Shown: in pieces, positions 32,369 to 43,697 of the stretch
Position numbering within the stretch: the first letter of the stretch is position 1
Layout of the letters: every line of letters begins with the position of its first letter
DNA from: Bacillota bacterium
Lineage (GTDB): Bacteria > Bacillota > Sulfobacillia > JAIMAT01
Direction: 5' to 3'
Length of the DNA stretch: 64,000 nt
NCBI GenBank assembly: GCA_029960955.1
Contig: JASBVS010000003.1
Coordinates: forward strand, 6,194 to 70,193
Notes under the pieces: generated by a model
Told to the model about the DNA's origin: nothing
Seen by the model: the letters and a program-made list of their open reading frames with translations, nothing else
The model's database searches: none
Translations under genes and position numbers: made by a program

Positions 32369-33337
32369 ATGGCATTGGCCCACGAGCTGGAGGACGGCCG
32401 GACCGCTTCCGACGAGCTGGGAAGCGCCATGGAGCGCGTGGTACAGGCCGCCGAGCGGCTGCACGCGGCGCAGCAGGAAGGCGACCTGCGCGAACCCCTC
32501 GCGCCCCGCTACCCGGACTACGAGCGCGTGGTCCGCCTGATCGGCAAGCTGCGCCGGGTGCTCTTCCCCGGCCACTACAGCGGGCGGCAGGCGGTCCGCC
32601 TCGACCCGACGGCCCTCAACGAGCGGCTGGGCGACATCTTCTGGGACCTGGCCGACGAGATCCATTCGGCGCGCGCGCACGCGTGCGACACCTCGACCTC
32701 GCTCTGCCCGGAGCTGAGCTGGGCGCAGTCGGTGGCCGCCGCCTTCCTGGCCGAGCTGCCCAGGATCCGCGCGATGCTCTGCGACGACGTCCACGCGGCC
32801 TACGACGGCGATCCCGCCGCCAAGAGCTACGACGAGATCCTCCTCGCCTACCCGGGCTTCTTCGCCGTACTCGTCTACCGCCTGGCCCACGAGCTCTGGG
32901 TGCGGGGCGTGCCGCTCATCCCGCGCATGATGACCGAGTACGCGCACAGCGTCACCGGCATCGACATCCACCCGGGCGCCCAGATCGGGCGGAGCTTCTT
33001 CATCGACCACGGCACCGGCGTGGTCATCGGCGAGACGGCGGTCATCGGCGACCGCGTCAAGCTCTACCAGGGGGTGACGATCGGCGCCCTCAGCTTTCCC
33101 AAGGACGAGAGCGGGGCGCTGATCCGCAACCAGAAGCGCCACCCCACGCTGGAGGACGACGTGGTCGTCTACTCCGGCGCCACCATCCTGGGCGGCGCGA
33201 CGGTGATCGGCCGCGGCGCCGTCATCGGCGGCAACTGCTGGGTGACCGAGAGCGTCCCCGCCGGCGCCATGGTCCTGCACCGGCCGACGGTGGAGCTGCG
33301 GCCGCCGCGCGAACCGGGCGCGCCGGGCGCCCGCTGA
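32369..33337 (+). CDS. cysE: Serine O-acetyltransferase with an N-terminal SATase extension.
   Basis: Left-handed beta-helix hexapeptide repeats: GIDIHPGAQIGRSFFIDHGTGVVIGETAVIGDRVKLYQGVTIG...DDVVVYSGATILGGATVIGRGAVIGGN. Confidence 0.8.
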   Translation: MALAHELEDGRTASDELGSAMERVVQAAERLHAAQQEGDLREPLAPRYPDYERVVRLIGKLRRVLFPGHYSGRQAVRLDPTALNERLGDIFWDLADEIHSARAHACDTSTSLCPELSWAQSVAAAFLAELPRIRAMLCDDVHAAYDGDPAAKSYDEILLAYPGFFAVLVYRLAHELWVRGVPLIPRMMTEYAHSVTGIDIHPGAQIGRSFFIDHGTGVVIGETAVIGDRVKLYQGVTIGALSFPKDESGALIRNQKRHPTLEDDVVVYSGATILGGATVIGRGAVIGGNCWVTESVPAGAMVLHRPTVELRPPREPGAPGAR

Positions 33338-33350
33338 GGGGGGAGGGCGG

Positions 33351-33872
33351 CTGGACGGGTACGGCTTCCTGACGACGCGCCGCGTCACCTGGCGCGACTG
33401 CGACCTGCTCGGTCACGTCAACAACGCGGTCTACTTCACCTACTTCGAGGAAGCGCGCACTCTCTGGCTCGAGCGCGCGCTGGGGGTGCCGCCCTCGGCG
33501 CTCTCCGGCGGGCGGCGCGGGGAGGCGGCGGGCGGGGAGGCGGAGGAGGCGCTTCCTCCCATGGTGCTGGCAAAGGCGAGCTGCACCTACCGGAGTCCGG
33601 CCCGCTTCGGCGAGGAGCTGCGCATCGGCGTCCGCCTGGGCGAGGTGCGCAGCTCCGCCTTCGAGCTCGAGTACGAGGTGGAGGCGGCCGACGGCCGCCG
33701 GGTGGCCAGCGGGCGGACGGTCCAGGTCTTCGTCGACGCGCGCAGCGGCCGGCCGCGCAGGCTGCCGCCGAGCTTCCGCCAGCGGCTGGAGGCGGCCGGC
33801 TCCGCGCCTCAGCCGCCCGGCTCCCGGCCGCGCAGCCAGCGGACCAGCGCCAGCGCGTCCTCCACCCGCTGA
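33351..33872 (+). CDS. 4HBT/YbgC-like acyl-CoA thioesterase; no canonical start codon is found at the conserved N-terminus.
   Basis: YGFLTTRRVTWRDCDLLGHVNNAVYFTYFEEARTLWLER... In this frame only CTG (33351) precedes the conserved N-terminus, and the first ATG at 33486 removes the catalytic region. The cysE stop is at 33337. Confidence 0.55.
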   Translation: MDGYGFLTTRRVTWRDCDLLGHVNNAVYFTYFEEARTLWLERALGVPPSALSGGRRGEAAGGEAEEALPPMVLAKASCTYRSPARFGEELRIGVRLGEVRSSAFELEYEVEAADGRRVASGRTVQVFVDARSGRPRRLPPSFRQRLEAAGSAPQPPGSRPRSQRTSASASSTR

Positions 33873-35797
33873 AAACTGGGCACCACGTAGGCTCCGGCCA
33901 CCCAGGGCCGGATGGCGAGCCAGACCTCCTGGACCACCTCCAGCCCGACGCGGCGCGCCTCGGCCCCCGCCTCCTCCATCCGCCGCAGGACCGCCTCGGG
34001 GATGCGGATGCCGGGCACCTCGTTGTGCAGGTAGAGCGCGTGCGGGTAGCTGGCCAGGGGCATCAGGCCGGCCAGGAGGGGGAGGGGTGCGCCGCCCAGC
34101 CGGTCCAGCACCGCCTCCAGCTCGGCCGGGTCGTAGACCGGCTGGGTCATGGCGAAGTGGGCGCCCTCGGCCACCTTGGCGCGGAAGCGCTCCACCTCCC
34201 GCTCCAGGTCGGCGGCGGCCGGGTTGAGCGCGCAGCCGATCAGGAAGTCCGTCGGCCGGGCCAGCCGGTTGCCGGCGGCGTCCTCGCCGCCGTTCAGCCG
34301 GCGGAGGAGCCGGATCAGCCCGATCGAGTCGAGGTCGTAGACGGCGGTGGCGTGCGCGTAGTTGCCCAGCGCGGGCGGGTCGCCGGTCAGCGCCAGCACG
34401 TTCCGGACGCCCAGCGCGTGCGCCCCCAGCAGGTCGGCCTGCAGGCCCATCAGGTTCCGGTCGCGGGTGGTGAAGTGGAGGATCGCCTCCACGCCGGCCT
34501 CGCGCTGGACCAGGTGGGCGGCGGCCAGCGAGGACATGCGCACCCGGGCCATGGGGCTGTCGCCCACGTTGACGCAGTCGACCCCCGCCTCCCGCGCCTT
34601 GCGCGCCTGGGCGAGGAAGCGCTCCGCCACCGCGCCGCGCGGCGGGTCGAGCTCGAGGCTGACCACCAGCCGCCGGCCGAGGCGGTCCGCCAGCCTGGCT
34701 TGCGCGCGCTCCCCGCCGGCCGGCGCGGGAGGACGGCTGTCTGCCGCCGGCTCGGCGCCCGCCTCCGGCGGGGCGACAGGCTCGGCCCGCAGGCCCGCCG
34801 GGGGTGCGAGGGAGGCTCCGCGGCCGGCCTCGCGCCCCGCCAGGGCGGCCCCGCGAGGCGCGGGCGGCTCTCCCCCCCGGCGGCGCGCCAGCTCGAAGCC
34901 GAGCCGGGCCACGTGCTCGGGCGAGGTGCCGCAGCAGCCGCCCACCAGCCGGGCGCCCAGCTCGAGACCGCGCGCCACCGTCTCGGCGAAGTAGGCGGGG
35001 CGGGAGGGGTAGCGGACCCGTCCCCCGCTCCGCTCGGGCAGGCCGGCGTTGGGCGAGAGCGCCCAGCGCGGCCGCCGCGCGGGCGGCACCCGCGCGGCGA
35101 CGGCCTTCTCCAGCCGCGCCAGGCTCTCCAGGCTCGGCGCCGGCCCGGCGCCGCAGTTGACGCCCATCAGCTCCGGGAGCGGCTGGTCGCCCAGCGCCTC
35201 GAGGAACTCCTCCAGCGCCCGCTCCACCGGCGTGCCGAAGAGGGTGGTCCCGTCGGCGGAGAAGGTGAGGAAGGCCGCCGCCGGCAGGTCGGACTCGGCC
35301 CGCACCGCGCGCAGCGCCAGCGCCAGCTGGCGCGGGTCGGAGAAGGTCTCCAGGAGGAAGAGGTCGGCGCCGCCCGCGACCAGCGCGCGCACCTGCTCGC
35401 GGTAGGCTTCCTCCACCTCCGCCGGTTCGAGCGGGCCCAGGGGCGCCAGCGCGCCCTGGCAGGGCCCCAGCGAGGCGCCGACGAACGCCTCCTGGCCCGC
35501 CATCTCCCGCGCCTGCCGCGCCAGCTTGACGGCCGCCACGTTGAGCGCCCAGACCTCGCCCTGGAGGCCGTGGCGCGCCAGCGCCAGGCGGTGTCCCTGG
35601 AAGGTGTTGGTCGTCAGGAGGCGCGCGCCGGCGCGCAGGTAGTCCAGGTGGAGGTCGAGGACCAGCTCCGGCGACTGCGCGTTGAGCAGCTCCAGCGACC
35701 CGTAGAGCGGCGCCCCGCGCGCGTGGAGCTGCGTGCCGACGGCGCCGTCCGCCAGGAGCGGCCCCTCCTCCAGCGCGGCCAGGAAGGGGCTGCTCAT
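33809..35797 (-). CDS. yitJ: Bifunctional homocysteine S-methyltransferase / 5,10-methylenetetrahydrofolate reductase (YitJ-like).
   Basis: N-terminal Hcy-binding domain (GAVGTQLH...LLTTNTF...GVNCG...GGCCGTSPEH). C-terminal MTHFR domain (LVVSLELDPPRG...ILHFTTRDRN...LALTGDPP). ATG at 35797 overlaps the upstream stop (ATGA). Confidence 0.85.
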   Translation of the reverse strand: MSSPFLAALEEGPLLADGAVGTQLHARGAPLYGSLELLNAQSPELVLDLHLDYLRAGARLLTTNTFQGHRLALARHGLQGEVWALNVAAVKLARQAREMAGQEAFVGASLGPCQGALAPLGPLEPAEVEEAYREQVRALVAGGADLFLLETFSDPRQLALALRAVRAESDLPAAAFLTFSADGTTLFGTPVERALEEFLEALGDQPLPELMGVNCGAGPAPSLESLARLEKAVAARVPPARRPRWALSPNAGLPERSGGRVRYPSRPAYFAETVARGLELGARLVGGCCGTSPEHVARLGFELARRRGGEPPAPRGAALAGREAGRGASLAPPAGLRAEPVAPPEAGAEPAADSRPPAPAGGERAQARLADRLGRRLVVSLELDPPRGAVAERFLAQARKAREAGVDCVNVGDSPMARVRMSSLAAAHLVQREAGVEAILHFTTRDRNLMGLQADLLGAHALGVRNVLALTGDPPALGNYAHATAVYDLDSIGLIRLLRRLNGGEDAAGNRLARPTDFLIGCALNPAAADLEREVERFRAKVAEGAHFAMTQPVYDPAELEAVLDRLGGAPLPLLAGLMPLASYPHALYLHNEVPGIRIPEAVLRRMEEAGAEARRVGLEVVQEVWLAIRPWVAGAYVVPSFQRVEDALALVRWLRGREPGG

Positions 35798-36822
35798 GCC
35801 AGTCCCAGCTCCCGGCGCACCTCCTGGACGGCGCGCACCATCACCTCCAGCTTCCGCTTCGCCTCCTCCTCGGTCCGGGTCTTCAGCCCGCAGTCGGGAT
35901 CGACGTAGACGCGCTCGGGAGGAAGGAACTCCAGCGCGCGGTAGATGCCCCGCTTCACCTCCTCCACGCTCTCGATCCGGTGGCTGTGCACGTCGATGAC
36001 GCCCAGGCCGATCTCCTTCGAAAGGGGGTAGCGGCGGAGCAGGTCCAGCAGGGCGTAGTCGCCGTTGGCCATCTCCAGGTCGAGCTGGTCGACCGGCAGC
36101 TCCAGCAGCGCCGGGAGGACCTCCTCCCAGTGGCCGTAGCAGACGTGGCTGACCGTGTGCGCCTTCAGGCCGCGGGTCACGCGGCCCAGCGCCTCGATGG
36201 CGAGGTCGATCTCCTCCGGGCGCGTGGAGACGGCCGGCTCGTCGATCTGGATGAACTGCGCCCCGGCCGCCTCCAGCTCCAGCGCCTCCTCGTGGAGCGC
36301 CTCCGCCAGCGCCAGCGTCAGGCTGCGGCGGTCGGGGTAGTACTCGTCGAACGACCAGTCGCACATGGTGTAGGGACCGGTCAGGATGGCCTTGACCGGC
36401 CGGTCGGTCAGCGCCTGCGCCTCGCGCCAGCTCTCCAGCGCCAGCGGCCGGACGCGGCGGACGGGTCCGACCACGATCGGCTTGCGGTAGTACCGGTTGC
36501 CGTAGGAGCGGACGGGGCCCGAGATGGCGAAGCCGTCCAGGAGCTCGGCGAAGTAGGTGGCCATGTCGCCGCGCTCCATCTCGCCGTGGACCGGGACGTC
36601 GATGCCGATCGCCTCCTGGAAGCGGATCCACGCCTCCGTCGCCTCCCGTTCGAGGCGGCGCAGCTCCTCCTGCGCGACCTCCCCCCTGCGCGCCCGCTCC
36701 CGCGCCTCCAGCAGCGCCGGCGGCTTGGGCAGGCTGCCGACGCCGGTGGTGCGCAGCGTCCGGTGGGGAATGCCCAGCTTCCTCGAGCCGGGACGACCTC
36801 CGCCGTTCGCACTTCCCGTCAT
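35794..36822 (-). CDS. MetE C-terminal (catalytic, Zn-binding) domain-only cobalamin-independent methionine synthase homologue.
   Basis: 342 aa: GVGSLPKP...ILTGPYTMCDWSF...QIDEPAVS...VSHVCYGHWEE...VDPDCGLKTR (MetE C-domain Zn and homocysteine ligands). ATG at 36822 after GGGGGA, with 4-nt overlaps to both neighbours. Confidence 0.75.
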   Translation of the reverse strand: MTGSANGGGRPGSRKLGIPHRTLRTTGVGSLPKPPALLEARERARRGEVAQEELRRLEREATEAWIRFQEAIGIDVPVHGEMERGDMATYFAELLDGFAISGPVRSYGNRYYRKPIVVGPVRRVRPLALESWREAQALTDRPVKAILTGPYTMCDWSFDEYYPDRRSLTLALAEALHEEALELEAAGAQFIQIDEPAVSTRPEEIDLAIEALGRVTRGLKAHTVSHVCYGHWEEVLPALLELPVDQLDLEMANGDYALLDLLRRYPLSKEIGLGVIDVHSHRIESVEEVKRGIYRALEFLPPERVYVDPDCGLKTRTEEEAKRKLEVMVRAVQEVRRELGLA

Positions 36823-37859
36823 CGCGCATCCCCCCTGACGGCTCGGATCGCTTCGCCCAGCCGCTCCAGTTTCGCCCGCGCCTTGTCGGCGGGGAGGAAC
36901 TCGAGGCTGGCGCTGGGGTGGAGCGTCATCCGCTCCACCGGCACCTTGCCCGAGAGCCGCTCGACGAGGCGGAGCACCTCCTCCACCCTCTCCAGGCGCG
37001 GCTGCCGCGCGTCGAGGCAGCCGAGGCCCACCCCCCGGGGGAAACCCTCGGCCGCCAGCCGCCCGGCGACGGAGGGACCGGAGGCCAGGTCGAAGAGCAC
37101 GTCGTCGACCGGCCACTCCGCCAGCTCCTCCAGCAGGGGCGCCGCGTCGCCGAAGAAGAGCGCCAGCTGGGTGCGCGCGCCCAGCCCCGACACCACCCGG
37201 CGCGTCGCCTCGCGCGCCTCCGCCAGCCAGGCGGCGCGGTCGCGCAGCGCCCGCTCGCGGTCGGCACCCTGCGGCCGGACCAGCTCCGGTTCGTCCAGCT
37301 GGACGACGGCGGCGCCGGCCTCGACCGCGCCGGCCGCCAGCAGGTGGAGCGCCTCGCTCAGGTCGGCCAGGAGCCCCTCCCGGTCGTGGTAGTGCTCGTC
37401 GACCACCAGCGCGGCCGCCGTCAGGGGGCCGGGCAGCACCACCTTCACCCGCCGCTCCGTCCTCCGCGCCAGCCAGGCCGTCTGGCCGGCGAGGCTCATG
37501 CCGGCCGGGGCGATCCTGCCCGTCACCCGCGGAGCCCGGTAGTAGAAGTTGTTGTCGTAGTAGCGCACCAGGCCGCCCGGCTCGAGGCCGGCCAGGTCGC
37601 GCACCAGCGGCTCCATCAGGTCGTCCTGCCGCACCTGGCCGTCGGTCACCGGATCGAGAGCGGCCGCCTCCTGCTCGCGGACGACGCGGAGCACGGTGGC
37701 GTCGTAGGCGGCGGCCAGGGCGGCCGCGTCGATCTCGCCGCTCTCGAAGCGGTTCCGCTCGCGGCGCAGGTTGACGTCGCCGCGCCGCCAGGGGATGTGG
37801 GGGTAGCCGTCGAGGAGCGCGGCCTCCGGGCCGCGCGCATGGGCCGTCCTCTCCTGCAA
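36819..37859 (-). CDS. MetE N-terminal-domain-like (UroD/MetE fold) protein as a separate polypeptide.
   Basis: 346 aa: GYPHIPWRRGDVNLRRERNRFESGEIDAAAL...VTDGQVRQDD...VVLPGPLT...VQLDEPEL...GLGCLDARQPRLE resembles the folate-binding N-half of MetE. TTG start at 37859 after AAAGGAG. Confidence 0.6.
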   Translation of the reverse strand: MQERTAHARGPEAALLDGYPHIPWRRGDVNLRRERNRFESGEIDAAALAAAYDATVLRVVREQEAAALDPVTDGQVRQDDLMEPLVRDLAGLEPGGLVRYYDNNFYYRAPRVTGRIAPAGMSLAGQTAWLARRTERRVKVVLPGPLTAAALVVDEHYHDREGLLADLSEALHLLAAGAVEAGAAVVQLDEPELVRPQGADRERALRDRAAWLAEAREATRRVVSGLGARTQLALFFGDAAPLLEELAEWPVDDVLFDLASGPSVAGRLAAEGFPRGVGLGCLDARQPRLERVEEVLRLVERLSGKVPVERMTLHPSASLEFLPADKARAKLERLGEAIRAVRGDAR

Positions 37860-37988
37860 CTCCTTTGCCAGCTCCTTTTCGGTCCAGAGTCGGTGCTGCC
37901 CGATCCCCCGCTTCGCCGGCCCCGCCCCCGCACCTCCCGCCCGGCGCCCGGCGGGTGGCGGCGGGCGACGGCGGCCGCGGCTCGCCCC

Positions 37989-39011
37989 TCAGGGCGTCCG
38001 GGCGTGACGGTCGCCGGCGGAGCGCCCGCCGCCCCCGCCCCGCGGGCCGAGGAGCTCCTCCAGCGCCGCCTCCGGCCGCGCGTAGCGGAAGCGGTAGCCC
38101 AGCGCCAGCGCCCGCGCCGGCAGGGCGCGCTGGCCGGAGAGGAGGAGCGCCTCGGCCATCTCGCCCAGCGCCAGGCGGAGGAGCGGCGCCGGGGCGGGGA
38201 ACCACGCCGGTCGCCCCAGGAAGCGGCCGATGAGGCGGGCCAGCTCGCGCTGGCGGACCGGCTCGGGGGCGACCGCGTTGAGCGGCCCTTCCACCCGCTC
38301 CTCCTCCAGCGCCCAGCGGATCAGGCCGACCTCGTCGGCCAGGTGGATCCAGGGCACCCACTGCCCGCCGCCCCCCAGCGGTCCGCCCAGCCCCAGGCGG
38401 AAGGGGCGGAGGAGCTGCGGCAGGGCGCCTCCCTCGCGGGCCAGGACCAGGCCCGTCCGCAGCCGGACGACGCGCAGGCCGAGCCGCTCCGCGGCCTCCG
38501 CCTCCCGCTCCCAGGCGACGCAGACCCGCGCCAGGAAGTCGCTGCCCGGGCCCGCTTCCTCGGTCAGCTCCTCGTCGCCGTGCGGCCCGTAGTAGCCGAC
38601 GGCCGAACCGCTGACCAGCGCCTTCGGCCTCCGCTCCGCCGCCTCCAGCGCCTCCACCAGCGCCCGCGTGGAGCGGACGCGGCTCTGGAGGATCCGCTCC
38701 TTCCGCGCCGCCGTCCAGCGGCCGGAGGCGATGGACTCGCCGGCCAGGTGGACGACCGCGTCGGCCTCCTCCAGGGCGCGCCGCCACTCGCCCGACTCGC
38801 CGGCCTGCGGCCCCGGCGCCAGCGCCAGCTCGCCCGCGGGCAGCGCCGGCCAGGCGAGCAGCCGGACGCCCGGGGGCAGCCGCCCGGCCGCGGACGGAGC
38901 CGGCCTCCGGCTGAGGACGACCACCCCGTGACCCTCGGAGGCCAGGGCCTCGGCCAGGGCGCGACCGATCAGGCCGGTCCCTCCCGTCACCACCACGCGC
39001 AACGCCGCCAC
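37989..39011 (-). CDS. yfcH: YfcH/TIGR01777-family NAD-dependent epimerase-like protein (SDR fold plus DUF1731).
   Basis: MAALRVVVTGGTGLIGRALAEAL...GPLNAVAPEPVRQRELARLIGRFLGRPAWFPAPAPLLRLALGEMAEALLLSGQRALPARALALGYRFRY. GTG at 39011 after GGGGGAGGAG. Confidence 0.75.
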   Translation of the reverse strand: MAALRVVVTGGTGLIGRALAEALASEGHGVVVLSRRPAPSAAGRLPPGVRLLAWPALPAGELALAPGPQAGESGEWRRALEEADAVVHLAGESIASGRWTAARKERILQSRVRSTRALVEALEAAERRPKALVSGSAVGYYGPHGDEELTEEAGPGSDFLARVCVAWEREAEAAERLGLRVVRLRTGLVLAREGGALPQLLRPFRLGLGGPLGGGGQWVPWIHLADEVGLIRWALEEERVEGPLNAVAPEPVRQRELARLIGRFLGRPAWFPAPAPLLRLALGEMAEALLLSGQRALPARALALGYRFRYARPEAALEELLGPRGGGGGRSAGDRHARTP

Positions 39012-39139
39012 CTCCTCCCCCGCGAGCCGCCGCCGCGCGCACCCCCGCGCCGCCCGCGGAGCACCCTGCTTAGGCCGATTCGCTTCCTCGGGCCGGCGGC
39101 CTTCTCCGCCCGGTGGGAAAACGGGCGCCTGCCGGCGAA

Positions 39140-40573
<1,434 letters not shown>

Positions 40574-40730: not shown

Positions 40731-40952
40731 TCATCGAAACGGTTGCGCGCCGCGGAGCCCCTCGCCGGGCGAACCCCGGGCCTGGCCGGCCAGCGAACGT
40801 TCCGCCCGCTCGATGGCGAGACGGACGAGGCTTCCGCAGTTGCGCGAGGAGACGGATCCCCAGCCCTCGCGCTCCACGACCCCGGCCACGCCCAGTTCGC
40901 GCGCCAGCTCGACCTTGAGCGCGTCCGACATCAGGCCAGCACGCCGTGCCAC
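40731..40952 (-). CDS. Alpha/beta-type small acid-soluble spore protein (SASP).
   Basis: MSDALKVELARELGVAGVVEREGWGSVSSRNCGSLVRLAIERAE matches the SASP signatures (K-x-E-I/L-A-x-E-L/F-G-V and G-S-V-x-x-x-x-x-x-x-L-V). The start is moved to GTG at 40952 with SD AGGTGGGA 5 nt upstream (ORF-track start 40964). Confidence 0.7.
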   Translation of the reverse strand: MARRAGLMSDALKVELARELGVAGVVEREGWGSVSSRNCGSLVRLAIERAERSLAGQARGSPGEGLRGAQPFR

Positions 40953-41060: not shown

Positions 41061-42278
41061 TCAGGCGGAGCGGACCACTTCCGGCAGCGCCTGGGCGAGG
41101 CGGTCGATCTCTTCCTCCGTGTTGAAGAAGCCGGTGGAGATGCGCATCCTGGGCGGGTGAGGCGTGACGCGCAGCATGAAGCCGCGCTCGCGCAGCGCGC
41201 GCACGACGCGCTCCGGGGCGGCGCCCTGCGCCTCGAAGTGGAGGAGCCCGGCGGCGTTGGCGGGCGTCGTCACGCGCAGGCCGGGAAGCTCGCCCAGGCG
41301 CGCGCGGGCGTAGGCGGCCAACCGCTCGACGCGCGCGAAGAGCTCCGGCCAGCCCAGCGATTCGAGCCACTCCAGGCCCTCCCGCCAAGCCTCCAGGGCG
41401 GGCTCGAAGACGGTGCCCACCTCGAAGCGGCGCGCCCCCTCGGCCAGCTCCAGGCGCGGCGCGTCGGCGGCCACCGTGCCGTGGCGGGCGCTGGCCCAGG
41501 CGGCGAAGGTGGGCCGCAGCTCGGCCAAGCGGTCGGCGCGCACGTAGAGCGCCCCGGTCCCCTCCGGTCCGAGCAGCCACTTCTGCCCCGGCAGCGCGTA
41601 GAAATCGACGCCCAGGGCGTGCACGTCGACGGGGAGGGCGCCGGCCGACTGGGCGCCGTCGACCAGCACCGGCACGCCCCGCGCATGGGCCATCGTCACG
41701 ATCTCCGCCAGCGGCAGGCGGGCGCCGGTGGAGTAGCTGACGTGGGAGAGCAGGAGGAGCCGCGTGGCGGGTGTCAGCGCGCGCCGGATCCCCTCCAGCG
41801 CCGCCTCCTCCGAGCCGTCGCCGACGGAGGCGAAGCGGAGGCCGACGCCGCGCCGCTGGTGGAGGAGGTAGAGCGGCACGAGGCCGCCCTCGTGCTCGGC
41901 GTCGGTGGTGACCACCTCGTCGCCCGGGGTCCACTCGATTCCCCAGAGGACGATGTTCAAGCCTTCGCTGGTGTGGTGGGTCAGGGCCACTTCCTCCGCG
42001 CCGGCGCCGATCAGGGCGGCCACCCGGGCCCGCAGCGCCTCCCTCCGCTCCCGCGCCAGCGGCCAGAGGTCGGGCCAGGCGCGACCCTCCTCCACCTCGC
42101 GCGCCAGCGCCCTCTCCAGCGCCGCCGCCACCCGGCGGGGAAGCGGGCCCGCCGTGCCGGTATTCAGGTAGACGGCGCGCCGGACCGCAGGAAGCTCCTC
42201 GCGCACGGCCTGGAGATCGAGCACCGCCCCGTCCCTCCCGCGCGGCGGACGGCCCGGGAGCCGCACCGCCAGGCTCAC
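41061..42278 (-). CDS. Class V (fold type I) PLP-dependent aminotransferase/desulfurase-like enzyme; no C-terminal catalytic Cys was found.
   Basis: PLP lysine context FYALPGQKWLLGPEGTGALYVR, with LTHHTSEGLNIV and LLLSHVSYSTGARLP. It is nested in a longer spurious ORF in another frame. Confidence 0.7.
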   Translation of the reverse strand: MSLAVRLPGRPPRGRDGAVLDLQAVREELPAVRRAVYLNTGTAGPLPRRVAAALERALAREVEEGRAWPDLWPLARERREALRARVAALIGAGAEEVALTHHTSEGLNIVLWGIEWTPGDEVVTTDAEHEGGLVPLYLLHQRRGVGLRFASVGDGSEEAALEGIRRALTPATRLLLLSHVSYSTGARLPLAEIVTMAHARGVPVLVDGAQSAGALPVDVHALGVDFYALPGQKWLLGPEGTGALYVRADRLAELRPTFAAWASARHGTVAADAPRLELAEGARRFEVGTVFEPALEAWREGLEWLESLGWPELFARVERLAAYARARLGELPGLRVTTPANAAGLLHFEAQGAAPERVVRALRERGFMLRVTPHPPRMRISTGFFNTEEEIDRLAQALPEVVRSA

Positions 42279-43030
42279 CCGGCCGTCCCCGCCCCCCGTT
42301 CGACCGGGTAGCCTTCGGCCTTCCAGGCGGCAAACCCTCCCGCCAGAAGCCCGACGCGGGGGAACCGCCTCGCCAGGAGCGGCAGCGCGCTCCGCCCGAG
42401 GAAGCAGTACGGCCCGCGGCAGTACGCGACCGCCTGCGCCGGCCCTTCCTGGCGAGCCAGCTCTTCCAGCGCCTCCGGCCGCGCGGCCAGCTCCTCGGCG
42501 GGCAGCGAGCGCGCCCCCGGCAGGTGGCCCGCCGCGAACTCGACCGCCGGCCGCAGGTCGATCAGGAGCACCCGCCCGAGCCTTCCGGCGAGCTCGGCGG
42601 CCTCCAGCGGCGGCCCGCCCCCGCCCGCCTCCAGCCCGGCGGCTTCGCGCGCCAGCTCCGCCAGCCGCCGCGAGTGCCGCGCCGCCGCCTTCTGCAGCTC
42701 CAGCCAGAGGTTAAGGATGTCGTCGCCGGCAAGGCGATACTCGACGTAGAGCCCGTGCCGCTCGGCCTCCACCAGCCGCTGGCGGCGCAGGACACCCAGG
42801 TGCTGCGAGGCGCTGGCCACGCCCAGCCCTGCGGCCCCGGCCAGCGCCTCGACCGTCCGCGGGCCCTGCGCCAGGAGCCCGAGCAGGCGCAGCCGGTGCG
42901 GGTGGGCGAGGGCGCGGGCGAAGCGCGCCAGCTCCGCCAGCGCGCCCGCCTCCGCTCCGCCGGGCCCGCCAGCCGGCAGGGTGGTCTCCGACCGGGAAGT
43001 CTCCGGCGGCACGCTCCCGCCAGCCGTCAT
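42275..43030 (-). CDS. ArsR-family winged-helix regulator fused to a C-terminal rhodanese domain.
   Basis: N-terminal LARFARALAHPHRLRLLGLLAQGPRTVEALAGAAGLGVASASQHLGVLRRQRLVEAERHGLYVEY (ArsR HTH). C-terminal rhodanese-like VLLIDLRPAVEFAAGHLPGARSLP...AVAYCRGPYCFLG. It overlaps the downstream aminotransferase start by 4 nt. Confidence 0.7.
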   Translation of the reverse strand: MTAGGSVPPETSRSETTLPAGGPGGAEAGALAELARFARALAHPHRLRLLGLLAQGPRTVEALAGAAGLGVASASQHLGVLRRQRLVEAERHGLYVEYRLAGDDILNLWLELQKAAARHSRRLAELAREAAGLEAGGGGPPLEAAELAGRLGRVLLIDLRPAVEFAAGHLPGARSLPAEELAARPEALEELARQEGPAQAVAYCRGPYCFLGRSALPLLARRFPRVGLLAGGFAAWKAEGYPVERGAGTAG

Positions 43031-43175: not shown

Positions 43176-43697
43176 GTGTTCCAGAACGTCGACGTCGACG
43201 CCCTGCGCTCCACCATCGACCAGGCGTCCGCAGGCGCTTCCACGCGCCAGAGCGTCGTCCTCGAGGGCGACTGGAACTTCCGGGACGGGCAACCCCAGTT
43301 CGCCGCCACCCTGGGCACGCCCAGGGCCGGGCAGGTGACGCTCCAGGCGGACTTCCCGCCCCACATGGGCGGCAACGGCCTCGCGCCCAGCGCCGTCCAG
43401 TACTGCATGTACGGGGCCATGGCCTGCTTCGCCTCCACCTTCGCGCTGGTGGCCGCCCTGGAGGGGATCGGACTCCGCTCGCTCCACGTCCGCTCGACGG
43501 CCGACGTCAACTTCGCCCGCTTCTTCGGGCTGGGCGAGGCGCCCGTGATCGAAGCGCTGCGCTGGGAGGTGGAGGTGGAGAGCGACGCCCCGCAGGAGGC
43601 GCTCGACCGGCTCCTGCAGACGGCTGAGGAGCGCTGCCCGGCCACCTGGTGCCTGCGCAACCCGGTGCCCGTGCAGGCGTCCGTGCGCCGCCGCTGA
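43176..43697 (+). CDS. OsmC/Ohr-family peroxiredoxin-like protein.
   Basis: GNGLAPSAVQYCMYGAMACFASTFALVAA...AEERCPATWCL, with two conserved Cys regions. GTG at 43176 after GGGAGGGA. Confidence 0.7.
   Translation: MFQNVDVDALRSTIDQASAGASTRQSVVLEGDWNFRDGQPQFAATLGTPRAGQVTLQADFPPHMGGNGLAPSAVQYCMYGAMACFASTFALVAALEGIGLRSLHVRSTADVNFARFFGLGEAPVIEALRWEVEVESDAPQEALDRLLQTAEERCPATWCLRNPVPVQASVRRR

Follow-up and report, generated by a model that had tools for sequence, protein, structure and literature searches.

The window analysed here, a 64,000-nucleotide stretch of a Bacillota metagenome-assembled genome (MAG; GCA_029960955.1, contig JASBVS010000003.1, positions 6,194 to 70,193), carries on its minus strand three chained genes, A, B and C, that probably encode a split cobalamin-independent methionine synthase (MetE) together with the enzyme that would feed it (Table 1). 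Judging from the sequence, we put at about 75% the probability that A and B are the two subunits of such a synthase and that gene C, a yitJ-type gene, supplies the methyl donor. A preliminary description of this DNA had proposed a two-subunit MetE coupled to yitJ, and this is the reading best supported by the catalytic residues of B, the pairing of A-type and B-type genes at related loci and the genomic context.

The three minus-strand genes are chained by 4-nt start/stop overlaps exactly at the coordinates first given for them, and at both junctions (A/B and B/C) the start codon shares the four nucleotides ATGA with the preceding stop. These overlaps would couple translation of A, B and C, and may help to match the amounts of A and B. 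All three are genuine genes rather than chance open reading frames (ORFs), because in-frame G+C at third codon positions (GC3) is 0.96, Pfam E-values range from 1e-23 to 1e-80, and dN/dS is 0.22–0.33. The GC3 value applies to the true frames, gene A included, and is typical of the real genes of this genome; the G+C content of the window is 74.4%. Long plus-strand ORFs across the locus (for example 34025-35908) were rejected as high-GC shadow ORFs, with a GC3 of 0.83 compared with 0.96. The product of gene A is 100% identical to the deposited protein QJR08_01495, and its closest relatives come from MAGs labelled Clostridia, Bacillota and Limnochordales. In the two closest MAGs (L087 and L088; 87% and 83% identity) the region is syntenic, with the same A-B-yitJ chain and the same 4-nt overlaps. 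Measured against these two MAGs, dN/dS was 0.22–0.33 for A, 0.23–0.25 for B and 0.23–0.31 for C. Thus, A is kept by selection as strongly as B and C.

We scanned for the A-type pattern with one genome per species. At least 351 genomes encode an A-type protein, and the best 80 loci were examined. The majority of these 80 were bacterial (Chloroflexota/Dehalococcoidia, Actinomycetota, Omnitrophota, Nitrospirota, Methylomirabilota/Rokubacteria, Acidobacteriota, Ignavibacteria and Armatimonadota), and the archaeal ones belonged to Thermoplasmata, Hadarchaeota and MAGs labelled 'Methanobacteriota'. In 78 of the best 80 loci, a B-type gene began where the A-type gene ended or shortly past that point, and the products of these neighbours were 49–67% identical to B. 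The A gene ended in ATGA or GTGA in 47 of 81 related loci, a set that includes loci fetched earlier. Two loci alone among the 80, L027 and L084 (Armatimonadota/Fervidibacter MAGs), had an A-type gene and no B-type gene in the fetched flank; their A-type protein may have its partner gene at another site, as in Pyrolobus, or serve a different function. A Hadarchaeota A-type query gave 2915 relatives, MSBL-1 archaea among them; Pyrococcus was not found among the 120 matches listed of these 2915. One 599-aa protein (P0039), considered as a natural A-B fusion, was set aside as an N-terminally truncated ordinary MetE, 47% identical to MetE of Escherichia coli.

This distribution bears on whether A and B are merely an ordinary full-length metE broken by a sequencing or assembly frameshift, a check that the preliminary description had itself proposed. 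The two halves do adjoin in the N-then-C order of MetE. However, the identical two-gene ATGA structure occurs in three independent MAG assemblies and in dozens of other genomes, A and B together comprise 688 aa compared with 753 aa for E. coli MetE, and the N-barrel insertions of the full-length enzyme are missing. On TIGR01371, the model of full-length MetE (cutoff 930), B scores 290 bits and A 62 bits, so that neither qualifies as a canonical single-chain MetE. With the two-gene layout present at all but two of the 80 related loci and the insertions of the fused enzyme absent, a frameshift is excluded. The approximately 35-residue inter-domain linker of fused MetE (PMC539065) falls in a segment left out of our alignment.

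The 342-aa product of B had been described as a catalytic, zinc-binding barrel of C-terminal type, and this was borne out by an end-to-end match to Pfam Meth_synt_2 (270 bits) and by the presence of all four zinc ligands. With 413 bits, B also clears the cutoff (406) of the NCBIfam equivalog NF003317 (PRK04326, methionine synthase). When 82 A-type and 62 B-type proteins are aligned with E. coli MetE, residues H226, C228, E250 and C311 of B correspond to the zinc ligands H641, C643, E665 and C726, and S30, E81 and D194 correspond to the homocysteine-binding residues S433, E484 and D599. The His and both Cys of the zinc site, the homocysteine-binding Ser, Glu and Asp, and the equivalent of W561 are retained in 62 of 62 B-family sequences. 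The folate determinants of the C barrel, as defined for Thermotoga maritima MetE (Pejchal & Ludwig, PMC539065), have equivalents in B at residues 86-88 (DMA, for DM(V/A)), R110, R113 and W156.

A subgroup of the B family departs at one zinc ligand. The Glu665 position is Ala in 10 of the 62 B-type subunits (L002, L011, L014, L021, L032, L034, L041, L070, L071 and L078), with His and both Cys retained; the region reads DLAISHS or HLAFKNT in this subgroup and DLEMANG in B here. The B-type genes of these loci lie mostly just downstream of position ~9000. This subgroup may have a three-ligand zinc site, or altered chemistry.

We considered whether B could instead be a stand-alone 'core' folate-independent synthase that is supplied with methyl groups by a corrinoid protein or some other donor, with A as an accessory or regulatory pseudo-enzyme. 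The core enzymes MesA, MesB (core-MetE), MesC and MesD resemble B in being half-size MetE-like zinc barrels, and MesA is given as 38% identical to split-MetE catalytic subunits in the passages of Price et al. that bear on this (PMC7857596). An insertion of roughly 8 residues at beta4-alpha4 in the C barrel of full-length MetE is missing from B, as it is from single-domain archaeal enzymes that use methylcobalamin (Pejchal & Ludwig, PMC539065), and the Glu zinc ligand is absent in the Ala subgroup just described. By our numbering offset, the segment missing from B would include the Glu that binds pterin (Glu583 in T. maritima, E605 in E. coli), and B may therefore differ in the details of its pterin binding. 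The missing segment and its likeness to the methylcobalamin enzymes count against a folate-dependent, two-subunit MetE.

On the other side, the Mes core synthases have no second barrel and use no folate, whereas the A partner is present at this locus, is nearly always present in relatives and co-evolves with B. B retains the Trp, the Arg/Arg pair and DM(V/A) of the folate site. At the E484 position it has Glu81, and Glu stands there in 62 of 62 family members, unlike MesA and MesC, which carry Gln according to the part of the Price et al. survey that covers them (PMC7857596). MesD has a DUF1852 (MesX) companion; no corrinoid-protein or DUF1852 gene was found among the ten genes flanking the locus, and the A-B pair is repeatedly linked to 5,10-methylene-tetrahydrofolate reductase (MTHFR) genes, not to corrinoid genes. 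B also falls below the cutoffs of PRK00957 (177 against 258), PRK09121 (174 against 392) and PRK01207 (167 against 399); we take the first to be the MesA-type and the second the MesD-type model, and assume that all three cover Mes enzymes. A core MetE with a different methyl donor, offered as an alternative in the preliminary description, is therefore less likely than a split MetE, and we judge it improbable: the missing insertion speaks for it, and the folate determinants of B and the MTHFR linkage speak against it.

The 346-aa product of A had been said to resemble only MetE's N-terminal barrel. The resemblance held, but not its exclusivity. A clears the cutoff of Meth_synt_1 (48.9 against 27 bits), but scores higher on Meth_synt_2 (84.2 bits). 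It aligns better with the C-terminal than with the N-terminal half of solved and E. coli MetE, and shares 33% identity with B, its own partner. At the positions of the E. coli zinc ligands H641, C643, E665 and C726, A has A233, F235, D257 and A317, and the zinc ligands are thus lost. The A-family consensus at these positions is Y/Y/D/C, and the E. coli N barrel reads T/Y/D/C. In the T. maritima N barrel, Cys620 is replaced by Tyr232 beside an aromatic residue (Tyr233/Phe), Glu is replaced by Asp253, and Cys309 is kept (Pejchal & Ludwig, PMC539065). Across the A family, Tyr occupies the Cys643 position in 59 of 82 proteins and is followed by Phe in all 82, Asp occupies the Glu665 position in 82 of 82, and Cys the Cys726 position in 56 of 82. 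These Y/F/D/C positions read F/F/D/A in the window.

Other features also group A with the N barrel. The extra residue of the hairpin motif FDxN is common to A (VRYYDNNFYY) and the E. coli N barrel (TKWFNTNYHY), and is absent from B and the MetE C barrels, the catalytic barrels reading YG-SR/NR. Two basic residues of A, R32 (conserved in 79 of 82) and R99 (82 of 82), stand where the N barrel has two folate contacts: they align with E. coli K20 and K117, which by their motifs would be Lys18 and Lys104 of T. maritima. A neighbour-joining tree separated the A family plus the E. coli N barrel from the B family plus the MetE C barrels in 100 of 100 bootstraps, and its A and B subtrees were roughly congruent. 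Together the diagnostic residues, the indel and the tree support A as a zinc-less paralogous barrel, homologous to MetE's N-terminal barrel.

An AlphaFold2 model of A (pLDDT 91, pTM 0.91) had its best Foldseek matches in the Protein Data Bank among MetE structures (TM about 0.8), with UroD and MtaA-like folds far weaker. The output does not contain the target range of the match, so this result is silent on whether A is N-like or C-like. Neither half matches an unrelated family, a possibility raised at the outset, and UroD is a distant fold match only. Two insertions of the E. coli N barrel are absent from A, one of roughly 30 residues at beta2-alpha2 and one of roughly 19 residues at beta8-alpha8; the literature credits the beta8-alpha8 insertion of the N barrel and the beta4-alpha4 insertion of the C barrel with enlarging the inter-barrel interface (PMC539065).

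Separately, A carries a roughly 12-residue insertion, QGADRERALRDRAAWL, in its beta4-alpha4 loop (residues ~194-209, window 37230-37280). It is also present in L087 and L088, and other A-family members are without it. The same loop holds the interface-enlarging insertion in the C barrel of full-length MetE.

Several of these observations weigh against A as the N-type partner of a split MetE: its higher Meth_synt_2 score, the loss in its clade of the family-typical W78 (to Q), Y235 (to F) and C317 (to A), and the tree itself, in which long-branch attraction is possible because it contains one N-barrel sequence, on a long branch. The literature adds to them, since a search of it for biochemical work on a split MetE yielded nothing apart from Price et al. 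(2021) and a mention in GapMind.

The clade-specific losses also suggest that A might be a functionless, decaying duplicate of B, the relic of a tandem duplication: it has no zinc ligands, it shares a third of its residues with B, and it is off the family consensus at several conserved positions. However, these deviations are common to all three syntenic MAGs, dN/dS of A is the same as that of B and C, and the A family has 21 invariant columns and extends over the at least 351 species genomes found here. The confident model and the GC3 of A also speak against decay. Selection and conservation data effectively refute this explanation.

The product of gene C had been described as a YitJ-type fusion of homocysteine S-methyltransferase and MTHFR. 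Both domains were found, and the 608 bits of C on NCBIfam NF006396 (YitJ type) exceed the cutoff of 453. The best solved relative of its N-terminal domain is the homocysteine domain of 8g3h (deposited as 'Methionine synthase'; 152 bits), with which the motifs GVNC and GGCCGT align, so that the three zinc cysteines are kept. The MTHFR domain matches 1v93 and 3apt, both deposited as methylenetetrahydrofolate reductase. C shares the two-domain fusion with YitJ of Bacillus subtilis and lies above the equivalog cutoff for that type, but differs in being translationally coupled to methionine synthase genes, in its linker and in having no S-box leader; we take B. subtilis yitJ to be S-box controlled. 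The linker is a Pro/Ala/Gly-rich, low-complexity segment of roughly 60 residues between the domains (residues ~310-372, window 34682-34870), and it accounts for the extra length of C (662 aa), which exceeds the 611 positions of the NCBIfam model by about 50 aa. At their 3' ends, yitJ and a convergent gene for a 4HBT-type thioesterase share 64 nt (window 33809-33872), and the syntenic MAGs show this arrangement too, with 94 nt shared in L087. The thioesterase has 128 aa here and 176 aa in L087, and its ORF probably begins farther upstream than the listed GTG.

The main route to methionine could be the homocysteine S-methyltransferase domain of YitJ, acting with S-adenosylmethionine (SAM) or S-methylmethionine, with A/B as a redundant or condition-specific back-up. 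The three zinc cysteines of this domain are kept, and B. subtilis YitJ is annotated as an AdoMet:homocysteine methyltransferase (PMC6302742). However, methyl transfer from SAM or S-methylmethionine gives no net de novo methionine (textbook biochemistry), most lineages carry A/B without a yitJ neighbour, and A/B itself is under SAM-riboswitch control in some relatives. We consider this account very unlikely as the main source of methionine. Redundancy with the YitJ domain, which had been listed as an alternative, is compatible with a split MetE and does not exclude it.

The preliminary description had reported no S-box riboswitch upstream of A, and this was confirmed. Rfam scans found no riboswitch of any class in the whole window at gathering thresholds, and no relevant one in 37700-39300 at E<=10. 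The stretch that had been suggested as the upstream region (37860-39140) is, however, mostly coding: an epimerase/DUF1731 gene occupies 37989-39011, and the leader is therefore just 129 nt long. Within it, a consensus scan gave no match to a sigma-70-like promoter or an intrinsic terminator, as expected at 74% G+C. The sole element conserved in a leader alignment with L087 and L088 is a Shine-Dalgarno sequence, AAAGGAG (37872-37878), 12 nt before the TTG start of A. Riboswitches in relatives were sought with Rfam scans and a regular-expression scan. None was found in the Limnochordales/Clostridia relatives L001, L006 and L007. A SAM riboswitch lies directly upstream of the A gene in six Actinomycetota loci (RF00162 in L009, L017, L023 and L024; RF01725 in L033 and L065), and upstream of a yitJ-A-B operon in an unclassified bacterium (L032). 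Two Actinomycetota MAGs have a thiamine pyrophosphate riboswitch shortly downstream of their split metE pair (L023, 10405-10512; L042, 9968-10070), a recurrent neighbour without an obvious link to it.

Fusions of the yitJ type adjoin the A-B pair in the clade of the window, in Limnochordales and Clostridia MAGs, in an Ignavibacteria MAG and in L032. The SAM riboswitches and the MTHFR operon linkage are two independent genomic lines that support a role of the pair in methionine synthesis.

Table 1. Features of the putative split metE-yitJ locus; positions are those of the window.
Feature	Position	Strand	Details
Leader upstream of A	37860-37988	minus	129 nt, no riboswitch
Gene A, putative zinc-less N-barrel-type subunit of split MetE	36819-37859	minus	346 aa, TTG start
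ATGA shared by the A stop and the B start	36819-36822	minus	direct sequence reading
Gene B, putative catalytic zinc/homocysteine subunit of split MetE	35794-36822	minus	342 aa
ATGA shared by the B stop and the C start	35794-35797	minus	direct sequence reading
Gene C, YitJ-type homocysteine S-methyltransferase / 5,10-methylene-tetrahydrofolate reductase	33809-35797	minus	662 aa
Homocysteine-binding (MetH-like, Cys3-Zn) domain of C	34901-35758	minus	PF02574 S-methyl_trans 205 bits, residues 14-299
MTHFR domain of C, predicted 5-methyl-tetrahydrofolate source	33926-34672	minus	PF02219 114 bits, residues 376-624

If A and B form a split MetE, the His-Cys-Glu-Cys zinc site of B would activate homocysteine as a thiolate, and B keeps the C-barrel residues responsible in MetE for pterin stacking and for holding the glutamate tail. 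A, with neither zinc nor homocysteine binding, would dock face to face on B and close the folate cleft, to which R32 and R99 would contribute basic residues; the heterodimer would thereby rebuild the double barrel of MetE. The product of MTHFR, 5-methyl-tetrahydrofolate (5-methyl-THF), is the substrate of MetE. In this locus, the MTHFR domain of C would reduce 5,10-methylene-THF to 5-methyl-THF as the methyl donor of A/B, and the MetH-like domain of C would probably have a secondary activity, for example the methylation of homocysteine with SAM or S-methylmethionine.

A split MetE was proposed by Price, Deutschbauer & Arkin (2021, PLoS Genet; PMC7857596) from Pyrolobus and Pyrococcus and, in the passages concerned, was found 'primarily in archaea'. 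The prototype given there is P. furiosus PF1268 + PF1269, for which a complex is reported with a citation of earlier proteomics, and one bacterial case of adjacency is described, Sulfobacillus sp. hq2. A 2026 GapMind preprint has a one-line mention of split MetE as 'previously proposed'. As described in those passages, split MetE and our locus share two adjacent genes of about 330-345 aa, a zinc-bearing Meth_synt_2 barrel with a divergent Meth_synt_1-matching barrel, and a predicted donor that is methyl-THF or another methyl pterin. The survey's likely members from MSBL-1 appear under other locus tags, and the A family here also includes MSBL-1 proteins. Because this architecture was published in 2021, the locus is a new example, not a new kind. 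It differs from the part of the survey available to us in its host, a Bacillota MAG of 74% G+C, and in the mostly bacterial best 80 loci; the yitJ coupling and the SAM-riboswitch control in relatives are not mentioned in those passages.

The products, at 346 and 342 aa, fall within the length definition of a split MetE (each at most 400 aa, against one chain of at least 676 aa). For the catalytic component, the definition asks for at least 200 bits in phmmer against PF1269 (METE_PYRFU); a proxy here is the score of B above the NF003317 cutoff. The published filter also has the partner score higher on Meth_synt_1 than on Meth_synt_2. Gene A scores the other way round, the sole structural or operational criterion among those tested on which it falls outside the definition, and so do 7 of 10 sampled A-family relatives (L009, L057 and L059 pass). 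Price et al. call the filter incomplete, with false negatives, and cite AMET1_0515 in the relevant passage (PMC7857596). As it misses most bacterial partner subunits, split MetE in bacteria has probably been under-counted. Compared with canonical MetE (TIGR01371; E. coli b3829; T. maritima 1XPG), the locus has the same N-then-C barrel order, the same zinc and homocysteine residues, and the same substitutions in the zinc-less barrel. It differs in having two polypeptides in place of one, and in lacking the beta2-alpha2 and beta8-alpha8 (N) and beta4-alpha4 (C) insertions.

A bolder and rather doubtful idea is that the bacterial A/B pair is a surviving pre-fusion form of MetE, not a secondary fission, that it binds folate or pterin differently and more symmetrically, and that it works in a yitJ-coupled three-protein assembly. 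Its basis is that both subunits are without the loop insertions of the fused enzyme, and that A has a C-barrel-like hairpin with R99, N104, Y106 and R108 invariant; the absent insertions and this hairpin make a different, more symmetric binding possible. B is also missing the segment in which full-length MetE has its pterin-binding Glu. If this were true, A/B in yitJ-coupled operons could take 5-methyl-THF directly from the MTHFR domain.

The surroundings of the locus have a sulfur flavour and are syntenic in three MAGs. They include a serine-acetyltransferase-like hexapeptide protein with a long N-terminal extension (32369-33337, plus strand), a class-V, cysteine-desulfurase-like aminotransferase (41061-42278, minus), an ArsR-HTH/rhodanese fusion (42275-43030, minus) and an OsmC protein (43176-43697, plus). 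A small gene at 40767-40952 (minus) is 89% identical to a 73-aa product of a syntenic MAG, which has a faint Pfam match to SASP (small acid-soluble spore protein); this hints at spore formation in this high-GC Bacillota lineage.

The locus thus adds to the published class a broad bacterial distribution, a weakness in the published filter, and riboswitch and MTHFR linkage as independent functional evidence. With at least 351 species genomes encoding the A-type protein, split MetE would be far more widespread in uncultured bacteria than in the original survey, and the class already serves genome annotation in GapMind. A bacterial version that is linked to MTHFR and would use tetrahydrofolate should lend itself better to E. 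coli complementation than the archaeal prototypes, whose pterins may be different ones. The view of how MetE works is unchanged by these findings; they refine its annotation and offer a convenient test system.

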